Virus record (IMG/VR): IMGVR_UViG_3300048091_000425
Origin: a virus
DNA: 64,000 nt
Reading direction: 5' to 3' (one strand)
The number at the start of each line of letters is the position of its first letter. Within the stretch, counting starts at the first letter, position 1. The translations under genes and the position numbers were made by a program. Below, in pieces: positions 9,083 to 58,070 of the stretch. The notes below the pieces were generated by a model, which was given only the letters and a program-made list of their open reading frames with translations, did no database searches and was not told the DNA's origin.

Positions 9083-9493
9083 ATGACTTCCACTACCGCT
9101 GCCTCCAGAATGAACTGGTTCAACCTGATGAAAAGCAACCTTGAGGTCATCAAGACGCTCTATCCGCTGGCGTTCCCAGCCGAAGGTCAGCCCGTCAAAC
9201 CGCTCAAAAACAAAGTCGCTGATGATCTGGTCGTGGCATTGAAGGACTCGCACCCGGACATTACCCCGGCCCACGTGCAGCATGTGCTGGGTTTCTGGTG
9301 CACCCGCCGCTTCTACCTGAAGAGCTTCAAGGCCGCCACGCACCGCATCGACCTGGCCGGCCAACCTGTGGAAGAGATCAGTGAAGCGTCTCGTGAACAC
9401 GCCATGAACCGTTTGGACGCCAGTGATCAGCAACGAGCCAAGGCCAAAGCCAAGTCTACTGCCACGGCAGCAGCCACTCCGTCCCTTTCCTGA
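9083..9493 (+). CDS. ProQ/FinO-domain RNA chaperone
   Basis: LYPLAF...KPLKNKVADDL...VLGFWCTRRFYLKSFKAATHRIDLAGQP...EHA matches the FinO/ProQ domain. Confidence 0.85.
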   Translation: MTSTTAASRMNWFNLMKSNLEVIKTLYPLAFPAEGQPVKPLKNKVADDLVVALKDSHPDITPAHVQHVLGFWCTRRFYLKSFKAATHRIDLAGQPVEEISEASREHAMNRLDASDQQRAKAKAKSTATAAATPSLS

Positions 9494-55357: not shown

Positions 55358-55612
55358 ATGAAGATCAAACACGACCAGGTGGACGAGATGTACGGGCGCA
55401 TGAGTGAGGCCTGTGACATCGAGCGGGCCATTGAATCGGGGCAGATCACCAGTCTCAGCGGCGTATTGGCGTTCGTTCAGGCCCGATCCCTGGCAATCAG
55501 TGAGGCCCTGTCGAGCCAGGGTTTCATTGGTGGTCGGCATGCCCAGAGCCTTCAGCAAGACCTGATACAAGCTCAGCGTGAGGCCGGCGAGCCTGATGTA
55601 GTGCTGCACTAA
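55358..55612 (+). CDS. small hypothetical protein
   Basis: ATG 55358; ends before bidirectional terminator 55634-55660. Confidence 0.62.
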   Translation: MKIKHDQVDEMYGRMSEACDIERAIESGQITSLSGVLAFVQARSLAISEALSSQGFIGGRHAQSLQQDLIQAQREAGEPDVVLH

Positions 55613-55678
55613 ATCACTGGATACCCGAACACACAAAAGGCCTCTGTTGAGGCCTTTGTTGTTTCTGCTAGTACCTGG

Positions 55679-56308: not shown

Positions 56309-56674
56309 TTACTTACGCAGCCAGCTTTCAACAGTGTCAGAGCCGTGCTTGGCTTTCCACTCTTTCAGGGTTTTTTGATTGCCACCCTTGGTTTCAACAA
56401 GTTCACCAGTGTGCGGGTTCTGGTAAACCTTGATTTCGCGAGCGCGGCGGGTTTTCGTTTGAGTGCCGGCAACGGCAGTGATGTTGGTGTCGAAATCAGG
56501 GTAGATCAGCAAAGCGCCCTTGCGCAGAGAGAGGCCTTTAGAAGCAACGAAATCCTGCAGTTCTTTCTGCAGTTCGAGTTCCGGCGCAACATGCGGCTTA
56601 AGGTCAGCCAATTTCTTTTGCAGCTCAAGAATCGCTGCTTCGGTCGATCTGTATTCGTTAATCTTGTTGCTCAT
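56309..56674 (-). CDS. MvaT/H-NS-family nucleoid-associated xenogeneic silencer
   Basis: KINEYR...RRAREIKVYQNPHTGELVETKGGNQKTLKEWKAKHGSDTVESW. Confidence 0.93.
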   Translation of the reverse strand: MSNKINEYRSTEAAILELQKKLADLKPHVAPELELQKELQDFVASKGLSLRKGALLIYPDFDTNITAVAGTQTKTRRAREIKVYQNPHTGELVETKGGNQKTLKEWKAKHGSDTVESWLRK

Positions 56675-56733
56675 TTTGTCGTCCTCGACAGTGCGTTGGT
56701 TAGGGTGACTTTAGTGCCCCTTTGGTGGGGAGG

Positions 56734-56762
56734 AATATATTTAAGAATTGATTTAGTGTCAA
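56734..56762 (-). promoter_or_regulatory. sigma70 promoter of mvaT-like gene
   Basis: TTGACA-17-TATATT. Confidence 0.8.
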
Positions 56763-56811
56763 TTCTTTTTGGCATTAAAAGGCTATTTATTCTGTTTGTT
56801 TTCTTGAGATC

Positions 56812-57087
56812 AAAAAAAAGAGCCCTATAGAGGGCTCCTGATGACTACATAGTCATGGTCGGGCCAATAACCAGCCCCAATGATCTGTCCCAACGCTATT
56901 TAGGACAAAACTGCAGTGGTCGATAACAACCACCATTAATCAAAACCCCCGCTGGCAGCGTACCCAGCGTTACAGAGGCATTACCAGGGCTTCGTCGAAA
57001 CGAACTCGGACATGGGACACTTCTAGCGTCACAGTGTCCTAACCCCCTGGCGAACCAAGACTTTCTTGGCTCAGTGGTGAGGTGCCT
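56812..57087 (-). ncRNA. candidate stand-alone structured ncRNA (~275 nt)
   Basis: Promoter TTGCTA-17-TATACT (57120-57092), at least 8 hairpins, intrinsic terminator 56812-56837, no RBS-linked ORF. Confidence 0.65.
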
Positions 57088-57143
57088 TTGCAGTATAAGT
57101 ACCCTCAGGAGACCTAGCAACCACTAAATCAATTAAATTGCCA

Positions 57144-57518
57144 TCATGCCGAAACAATACCCAGGGCATGCACTGCATCTTTCAGTGCTTCCCGCTTACT
57201 GCCGCTTCGAAACTCTGCCCCTCGCTTAAATGCGAGGCTGTACCAACCCACATCGACCACGCCGGTGCGTGGATCTGTCGAACTATCAAACCTCAGTCCA
57301 GCCCGCTGAACCCTGGCCTGTTCATCCGTGGTCAGATCGATGCCCTGACCCAACACGGCAAACGCATCATCAGCCGCCTGGGCGAAGGAATCGAATCGCT
57401 CCTTAGAAGCCAGCCCTGTTGAGGAGCTGTACCAGCACCACTTGCCGGGTGTCGCCTCACGAAAGATCATTTCGACACGGGCTGTGGTAATGCCCGGATG
57501 GACAGCCTTACCCGTCAT
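57144..57518 (-). CDS. hypothetical protein
   Basis: ATGA-coupled ORF, 124 aa. Confidence 0.68.
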   Translation of the reverse strand: MTGKAVHPGITTARVEMIFREATPGKWCWYSSSTGLASKERFDSFAQAADDAFAVLGQGIDLTTDEQARVQRAGLRFDSSTDPRTGVVDVGWYSLAFKRGAEFRSGSKREALKDAVHALGIVSA

Positions 57519-57823
57519 GCCGAAGCCTGCTCGCCGGCTTCACCAGCCAAAGCTTGCCGGTAGAACGGATCCTGCATCAGCTCCAGGATCTCCCCTGCCG
57601 CTGTATTCAAGATATCGAGGGACACCGACACCGAAGACGGGCTTGCACCGTGCATCCTGCACGCCTCAGCCTGCGACACCCCATTCACAAGGTGTTCACG
57701 CATCGCTGGGATGGTGTACTTGCTCCGGATGTCAGTGTGATTTTTAACCAAACGGTCGAAATGCGAGGCGCTCACCTCACCCGGTACGAGCAGCACGGGT
57801 ACATCTTTCATTGGCTTTGGCAT
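57515..57823 (-). CDS. PapB/FocB-like transcriptional regulator, second paralogue
   Basis: LLVPGEVSASHFDRLV...IRSKYTIPAMREHLVNGVSQAEACRMHG. Confidence 0.75.
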   Translation of the reverse strand: MPKPMKDVPVLLVPGEVSASHFDRLVKNHTDIRSKYTIPAMREHLVNGVSQAEACRMHGASPSSVSVSLDILNTAAGEILELMQDPFYRQALAGEAGEQASA

Positions 57824-57839
57824 GTCGGTCTCCCAGGGC

Positions 57840-58070
57840 TTAGGACTGTTGTTTTTCCAGAGCCTGCGCATACAGGCTCAATTCGTCAGCAATCTTACGC
57901 AGATCGCCACGTTGAATGGTTTTCGGCAGGTTCAGGGAGATCGTCCCCTCTTCCCCATTCTTCTTGACGAGGGTATGGAGGATGCGTGCGTCACCCTGAC
58001 CTTCGAATGTCATGTTAGATACCAAGGCGCCGGCCAGGGTATCGGACTTTACAGGAATCAATTCAAGCAT
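57840..58070 (-). CDS. small hypothetical protein
   Basis: 76-aa ORF. Confidence 0.65.
   Translation of the reverse strand: MLELIPVKSDTLAGALVSNMTFEGQGDARILHTLVKKNGEEGTISLNLPKTIQRGDLRKIADELSLYAQALEKQQS

Follow-up and report, generated by a model that had tools for sequence, protein, structure and literature searches.

The observations set out below make it highly likely that the 64,000-nucleotide stretch of DNA analyzed here (the window) carries, on its minus strand, a genuine gene for a structured noncoding RNA (ncRNA). The gene lies in the 469-bp gap that separates a gene for a 124-aa protein (57144-57518) from a gene for an MvaT-family xenogeneic silencer (56309-56674). Based on sequence comparison, it very probably represents a previously undescribed family of plasmid small RNAs (sRNAs), so far confined to Pseudomonas megaplasmids of ~1 Mb. 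How would such an RNA work? We posit a mechanism in which the predicted ~275-nt transcript, made from its own promoter, acts in trans as a chaperone-assisted riboregulator. In this model, the unpaired, invariant 5' tail, ACCUCACCAC, is a candidate seed that would pair with target mRNAs at GAGG-type ribosome-binding sites; stability, and a surface to which host Hfq or the ProQ/FinO protein of the plasmid could bind, would come from the stable hairpins and the U8-tailed terminator; and transcription of the RNA would probably be coupled to that of mvaT through a 13-bp candidate site found in both promoters. The trans-acting base-pairing mechanism is a tentative proposal, somewhat short of an even chance; the statement as a whole, which joins a new family of ~275-nt ncRNA genes to a trans-acting, chaperone-assisted mechanism, comes close to an even chance without reaching it.

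Locus and control signals

Homologues were found in four other lineages only. These are a 1.06-Mb plasmid of P. serbica IT-P366 (95% identity by blastn), the group of the 1.17-Mb P. silesiensis plasmid pPL1 (~80% identity by blastn, and the sole PLSDB record matched), and two metagenome lineages, L003 and L007, which were obtained, along with several pPL1-like variants, from contigs in metagenome and read-archive assemblies that encode the 124-aa protein. The named hosts are all ~1-Mb Pseudomonas plasmids. Gene order is the same at every locus (ssb genes, small genes, the PapB-like gene, the 124-aa gene, the gap, mvaT, and a gene for a protein of 150-163 aa), and this synteny is maintained in 18 of 18 loci. 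Within the gap, reading along the minus strand, the RNA promoter is followed by ~275 densely paired nucleotides, the terminator, an A/T-rich spacer, the mvaT promoter, and the mvaT leader. The elements of the locus, and one distant gene to which we return below, are as follows.

57515-57871, minus strand: gene for a PapB-like regulator, in the same operon as the 124-aa gene
57144-57518, minus strand: gene for the 124-aa protein, last gene of the operon and directly upstream of the RNA gene in every locus
57122-57134, minus strand: 13-bp motif AATTGATTTAGTG, abutting the -35 box of the RNA promoter; candidate shared operator
57120-57092, minus strand: sigma70-like promoter of the RNA gene, TTGCTA-17-TATACT, conserved across lineages
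56839-56818, then T8 (element to 56812), minus strand: intrinsic terminator, conserved in all lineages
56762-56734, minus strand: separate promoter of mvaT, TTGACA-17-TATATT, conserved in all lineages
56758-56746, inverted relative to the first copy: second copy of the 13-bp motif, inside the spacer of the mvaT promoter
56309-56674, minus strand: MvaT-family xenogeneic silencer gene (PF22055, E = 6.7e-23), directly downstream of the RNA gene in every locus
9083-9493, plus strand: plasmid-borne ProQ/FinO-domain protein gene (PF04352, 78.7 bits), a candidate partner by context only

The preliminary description of this DNA had proposed the RNA promoter, a strong terminator after it, and a separate promoter for mvaT, and promoter and terminator scans recovered all three at the positions listed. 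The terminator has a G+C-rich stem of 9-10 bp, a loop of 4 nt, and a U8 tract, and the mvaT promoter matches the consensus at 11 of 12 positions. With this conserved terminator and this near-consensus promoter lying between the structure and mvaT, the region does not have the layout of an mvaT riboswitch or leader. The degree of conservation is informative as well. Between the window and L003, L007, and pPL1, the 52 bp that carry the RNA promoter are 94-100% identical and form the most conserved stretch of the locus; the corresponding values are 80-100% for the terminator, 60-81% for the RNA body, where the differences are concentrated in co-varying stems, and 48-67% for the four-fold sites of the flanking genes.

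These values bear on the possibility that the region acts only in cis, as the 3' end of the PapB-like/124-aa operon, where it would stabilize the mRNA and insulate the mvaT promoter, the internal promoter being incidental. Such a reading fits the fixed position of the region between the 124-aa gene and mvaT. It also fits a terminator scan that found none between the 124-aa gene and the RNA gene, so that read-through transcripts of the operon should end at the RNA-gene terminator. However, the promoter that would have to be incidental is the very stretch that the locus conserves best, and a single terminator hairpin would be enough for insulation, which leaves eight more hairpins and the 5' tail unexplained. 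We consider a purely cis-acting element distinctly unlikely.

A further link between the RNA gene and mvaT is suggested by the 13-bp motif. Its two copies form a perfect 13-bp inverted repeat, CACTAAATCAATT, that flanks the RNA gene; when up to two mismatches are allowed, the 64-kb window holds three matches, versus 0.8 expected, the third being a weaker copy (two mismatches) at 55607-55619. Both of the flanking copies are kept in all lineages with zero to one change, and the changes are independent of each other. That the copies change singly and independently is the behavior of a protein site, not of pairing, and suggests that one factor controls both the RNA promoter and the mvaT promoter through this candidate operator. 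A different role for the intergenic sequence was considered and rejected: as an anti-terminator would, the spacer of a promoter can pair with the terminator's 5' arm, and this complementarity is not kept in pPL1.

Less can be said of the upstream neighbor. The 124-aa protein matched no Pfam family, and only five clusters of it exist among 5.8 billion proteins, all of them from the RNA-gene locus; its AlphaFold model, built on a shallow alignment, is unusable (pLDDT 43). The strand opposite the RNA gene has no gene and no conserved open reading frame (ORF). The idea that the locus belongs to a plasmid leading region was dropped, as a crude ORF map showed mixed gene orientation.

Fold, covariation, and coding capacity

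The RNA is predicted to fold more stably than shuffled sequence. For the 276 nt delimited in the preliminary description (56812-57087), the minimum free energy (MFE) is -109.7 kcal/mol (z = -3.88), and none of 200 dinucleotide shuffles was as stable. The antisense strand folds at -88.7 kcal/mol, 21 kcal/mol worse than the sense strand, a gap that fits the many G-U pairs that had been noticed in the preliminary description. The architecture comprises eight hairpins, two enclosing helices, and the strong intrinsic terminator, in the 5'-to-3' order tail, H1, P2 (enclosing H2 and H3), P4 (enclosing H4), H5, H6, H7, H8, and terminator. All eight hairpins had been named beforehand, and all are present, at the positions given for them, in the MFE fold, and again in the independent folds of the homologues. 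The parts of the RNA are listed here, with the share of alignment cells that are paired where it was counted.

57087-57073, minus strand: 5' tail, unpaired; start predicted at ~57085-57087 from the -10 box
57072-57052, minus strand: hairpin H1, 9 bp, with a small A-rich loop; 93.7% of cells paired
57050-56984, minus strand: helix P2, CCAGGG/CCCUGG, enclosing a UUAGG junction, H2, and H3; 97.9% paired, kept in all lineages
57039-57008, minus strand: hairpin H2; sequence varies by lineage, hairpin in every independent fold
57004-56991, minus strand: hairpin H3, with a UUCG loop; two pairs changed on both sides
57087-57083 with 56980-56976, minus strand: helix P1, AGGCA/UGCCU, overlapping bases of P4; loses two of five pairs in L007
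56979-56975 with 56949-56945, minus strand: helix P4, GCCUC/GGGGU, enclosing H4; 97.1% paired, kept in five of five lineages
56969-56950, minus strand: hairpin H4; 95.7% paired, two pairs switching on both sides between G-C and A-U
56944-56935, minus strand: A/U-rich linker preceding H5
56934-56915, minus strand: hairpin H5, 8 bp; 100% of cells paired, four pairs with one-sided changes
56909-56884, minus strand: hairpin H6, with an invariant GCGUU in its loop; hairpin in every lineage
56877-56861, minus strand: hairpin H7; 100% paired, two both-sided changes (G-C to A-U and C-G to U-A)
56856-56841, minus strand: hairpin H8, extended in the pPL1 lineage by an insertion

The preliminary description had closed the 5' domain by two helices, and only one of them stands without qualification. 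CCAGGG/CCCUGG (57050/56984) is the P2 found in all lineages. AGGCA/UGCCU (57087/56976) does exist as P1, but it competes with GCCUC/GGGGU and is the helix that is eroded in L007. Since they use overlapping bases, P1 and P4 are mutually exclusive, and they may be alternative pairings of the same RNA.

The same series of helices emerges when each of the five lineages is folded on its own. RNAalifold gives 84 pairs, 17 of which have changes on both sides. When seven sequences are aligned over the 5' domain, standard pairs occupy 96% of cells, versus 32-52% when the partners are slid, and four pairs change on both sides. Taken helix by helix, pairing across the lineages is 93-100%, with compensatory and G-U-preserving changes. 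The exception is H6, for which the counted pairing is 77% only, the alignment register being imperfect there: MAFFT sets H2 and H6 one column out of register, which lowers the count. Nearly all of the stem sequence of H2 and H6 differs between lineages; the H6 stem appears as GUCC/GGAC, GACC/GGUC, or ACUC/GAGU. Variation elsewhere follows the same pattern. Four sequences close the H3 loop with U-A and three with C-G, and another H3 pair is U-A or G-C; where the pairs of H1 vary, four in all, G-U or A-U alternatives are the only replacements. One-sided changes are mostly transitions, of the kind that preserve G-U pairing on the RNA strand only. A collection of homologues with a covariation analysis had been proposed as a check on the preliminary description, and its outcome is favorable within bounds: with five lineages only, the covariation could not attain R-scape-type significance and several pair changes are single events, so we describe the structural conservation as not statistically decisive, yet consistent in every helix.

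Could the fold serve the DNA and not an RNA? The region would then be a site of single-strand initiation, or a promoter of the Frpo kind that works on single-stranded DNA upon plasmid entry into a recipient. Refolded with DNA parameters, it also folds well (z = -5.0), and there are three ssb genes in the region. But an Frpo-type element would be one long imperfect hairpin that builds the -35 and -10 boxes, and what we find is many short hairpins, with the promoter bases outside the stems. An ordinary duplex sigma70 promoter precedes the structure, and a canonical U-tract terminator follows it and would stop transcription before mvaT. The pairing, moreover, depends on many conserved G-U pairs, and one-sided changes keep the wobble. 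A DNA-level element is therefore very improbable in our judgment.

Each individual sequence does allow ORFs of 15-68 codons to be drawn. Compared across the five lineages, however, these ORFs have no common start, frame, or peptide, and their frames are broken by indels. The earlier claim that no ORF is linked to a ribosome-binding site is borne out to the extent that no start or frame is conserved, and a type I toxin mRNA of the hok kind, for which one would expect a short hydrophobic ORF that is conserved and an antisense RNA overlapping it, does not fit such ORFs. The same comparison weighs against the view that the region has no function, being made up of chance or decaying intergenic hairpins or, in a variant of this view, being an mRNA for a small protein or a type I toxin. 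The small number of lineages, like the ORFs, would suit that view, but pairing has stayed at 93-100% despite divergence near the levels of four-fold sites, and the promoter and terminator are conserved. We find a lack of function scarcely credible.

Two observations concern the finer structure. The pPL1 lineage carries an insertion of ~80 nt in H8 (L001:1846-1935, and at the same place in L009-L018), itself a long hairpin with a GGAGGG...CCCUCC core; the RNA of this lineage would therefore be ~355 nt long, and the position evidently tolerates expansion. In addition, the H4 loop ACGCU (56957-56961) is complementary to the H6 loop AGCGU (56890-56894). In the pPL1 lineage the two loops read UCGCG and CGCGU, with one compensatory change from U-A to G-C, and a tertiary loop-loop contact between H4 and H6 is possible on the strength of this single event.

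Known RNA families and working models

Is the RNA a member of a known family? At gathering thresholds, Rfam 15 identified three tRNAs elsewhere in the window and nothing at the RNA gene. A permissive Rfam search of 56600-57300 returned terminator-like matches only, with E values of ~0.1 or worse; the best, to Atu_C8 (21.8 bits versus a threshold of 50), covered the terminator end only. The Rfam comparison was a second check that had been proposed, and like the earlier exclusion of tmRNA, 6S RNA, and SRP RNA, which our analysis supports, it speaks for an RNA outside the catalogued families.

Comparison with individual systems is instructive. RsmY and RsmZ, the CsrB-type sponges of RsmA/CsrA, are likewise multi-hairpin Pseudomonas RNAs with a promoter and terminator of their own. 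The megaplasmid RNA differs in having no loop-exposed GGA motifs and no Rfam match. Members of that group carry several GGA motifs in loops or single strands; here there are three, all in stem strands (H2, H6, and the terminator), as had been claimed in arguing that the RNA is not RsmY/Z-like, and they are not conserved, the terminator GGA reading GGG in pPL1. Plasmids encode clients of FinO-domain proteins, namely FinP with FinO on F-like plasmids, RepX-type RNAs, and Inc antisense RNAs (PMC8136791, PMC8053102, PMC9977716). The megaplasmid RNA resembles these clients in being plasmid borne and highly structured, in its G+C-rich terminator hairpin with a U tail, and in the presence of a FinO/ProQ protein on the same replicon. 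However, FinP is ~80 nt long with two stem-loops and is encoded antisense to the leader of its target, and the megaplasmid RNA is ~275 nt long with ten helices and has nothing encoded opposite it, so a FinP-like antisense RNA was rejected.

Hfq-dependent trans-acting sRNAs with 5' seeds are a third point of reference, a class that includes sRNAs transcribed from a promoter inside an operon, at its 3' end. The likeness here lies in a promoter right after a stop codon, an invariant unpaired 5' end, a rho-independent terminator with a long U tail, and a single gene copy; the tail expected of such sRNAs, at least six U residues after the terminator, is present as U8 behind the 9-10-bp stem in all lineages. 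In contrast, typical members are much smaller than the megaplasmid RNA and have far less structure. In Escherichia coli, the sRNA DsrA regulates hns, an H-NS-family gene, and the locus described here likewise associates an sRNA with a nucleoid-silencer gene; the link on the megaplasmid is one of adjacency and a shared promoter motif only, with no similarity in sequence or structure.

Judged by these comparisons, the RNA falls outside the families described so far: it is antisense to no gene, FinP reaches a third of its size, none of its GGA motifs is exposed, and Rfam gives no match. The preliminary description had likewise called it an undescribed plasmid RNA, and this claim holds up well, given the covarying structure in five lineages, the conserved promoter and terminator, the lack of a conserved ORF, and the ~1-Mb Pseudomonas plasmids that serve as hosts. 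In its working, we infer that it is most like the plasmid-borne FinO-domain clients or the Hfq-type seed sRNAs.

We favor a base-pairing role because of the 5' tail. The 10 nt of ACCUCACCAC (57083-57074) are invariant (alignment columns 9-18) and are unpaired in the consensus and in the individual folds; they resemble an anti-Shine-Dalgarno sequence and are complementary to GAGG-type ribosome-binding sites. Seeds are classically recognized by just such a single-stranded, invariant 5' end, and we judge that the tail points to a base-pairing role, which the preliminary description had not put forward, at least as strongly as to a protein partner. Similarly, a terminator with a U tail is the usual binding module for Hfq or ProQ. 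Hfq is encoded on the chromosome only. The ProQ/FinO gene has orthologues on pPL1 and on the P. serbica plasmid, ~47-49 kb from the RNA gene, and in the P. serbica genome the plasmid copy is the sole PF04352 match, such that the chromosome appears to lack one. A gene of this kind on the plasmid makes the idea of a ProQ partner, as put forward in the preliminary description, a reasonable if putative one.

Several results count against the base-pairing mechanism. Sequences complementary to the 5' tail show no enrichment in the 64-kb window, nor do they in the related plasmid and the host genome when set against a reversed-pattern control, and a search for a conserved target site of the tail found none; a 12/13 match on pPL1 was discarded, as it is not conserved in the window. 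RNAduplex energies between the RNA and the mvaT leader were no better than those of shuffles. The H6 loop can also be matched to the mvaT leader over 7 bp (CCAACGC); this match is at about chance level, is absent from plasmid pBASL58, and was likewise set aside. The AGGCA portion of the tail, furthermore, could be sequestered in the alternative helix P1. Finally, ten conserved helices go far beyond what a seed sRNA needs, and this excess of conserved structure favors a protein-binding or tertiary-structure role.

Is the fold itself, then, the functional part? If the RNA were a sponge, decoy, or scaffold, its multi-helix fold would be a surface that titrates or organizes ProQ/FinO, MvaT, or the 124-aa protein. 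Besides the number of helices under covariation, the conserved UUAGG junction, the loop motifs and possible H4-H6 loop contact, the plasmid's own ProQ/FinO gene, and the tight linkage of the RNA gene to mvaT and the 124-aa gene are consistent with protein binding. Against it, there is no repeated motif of the sponge type, the three GGA motifs being paired and variable; MvaT is a DNA binder, for which we know of no RNA ligand; and the model of the 124-aa protein is unusable. On balance, protein binding as the main function is a rival to be taken seriously, although it strikes us as rather unlikely. A bolder version, which we think quite unlikely, is that the RNA is a large tertiary-structured molecule and a dedicated ligand of the plasmid ProQ/FinO or of another plasmid protein, and that together with the co-regulated MvaT it reprograms gene expression in a new Pseudomonas host upon entry of the giant plasmid. 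Features of such a molecule would include the multi-branched 5' domain, the alternative pairing of P1 and P4, and the H4-H6 loop-loop contact. If true, this would be a module of plasmid-host cross-talk of a kind not yet described.

Why does the RNA matter? Megaplasmids of ~1 Mb place large regulatory burdens on their hosts and carry "stealth" proteins of the H-NS/MvaT type. To our knowledge, the regulatory RNAs that such megaplasmids encode are almost unexplored. The RNA described here is conserved, unusually large and structured, linked to mvaT, and probably shares a control site with it, and the replicon brings a ProQ/FinO chaperone of its own. It offers a concrete entry point to RNA-based cross-talk between plasmid and host in Pseudomonas and would add a family to RNA databases. 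Its distribution across five lineages limits this significance, but its size and structural complexity leave room for more novel function than that of a plasmid-encoded regulatory sRNA.

Distribution and similar loci

The RNA appears to be both rare and single. A blastn search of 401 Pseudomonadaceae genomes recovered no more than the one related plasmid, as did a covariance model of the 5' domain run on 151 Pseudomonas genomes, and blastn against phage records gave no match. An exact-pattern scan of genome contigs identified the P. serbica plasmid only; two exact-pattern matches in metagenomes (L020 and L021) lie within a coding region and were put down to chance. The gene is present in one copy per plasmid, according to an unfiltered covariance model run on the window and the model run on the P. 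serbica genome and pPL1.

The region upstream of mvaT on other plasmids was also inspected. The 5'-domain covariance model gave nothing significant upstream of six other plasmid mvaT genes. On pQBR103 (L025:957-1491), 0.5 kb without annotated genes precedes mvaT, and on a P. rhodesiae plasmid (L029:270-1491) the corresponding interval is 1.2 kb; a simple scan found no promoter-plus-terminator pair in either. A similar layout does occur upstream of mvaT on pBASL58, an unrelated 904-kb plasmid of Pseudomonas sp. Leaf58 (NZ_CP032678.1; L028:1221-1442). There, a promoter (TTGACG-17-TATACT) is followed by a 126-nt unit of four hairpins (MFE, -47 kcal/mol; z = -4.9), a terminator, and then the mvaT promoter. 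The unit is half the size of the RNA in the window, and its covariance-model score (5.6 bits, E of ~1.2) is not significant. It nonetheless shares with that RNA its layout, a promoter ending in TATACT, and a loop, CGCGUUG, that resembles the loop of H6, and it may be analogous rather than homologous.
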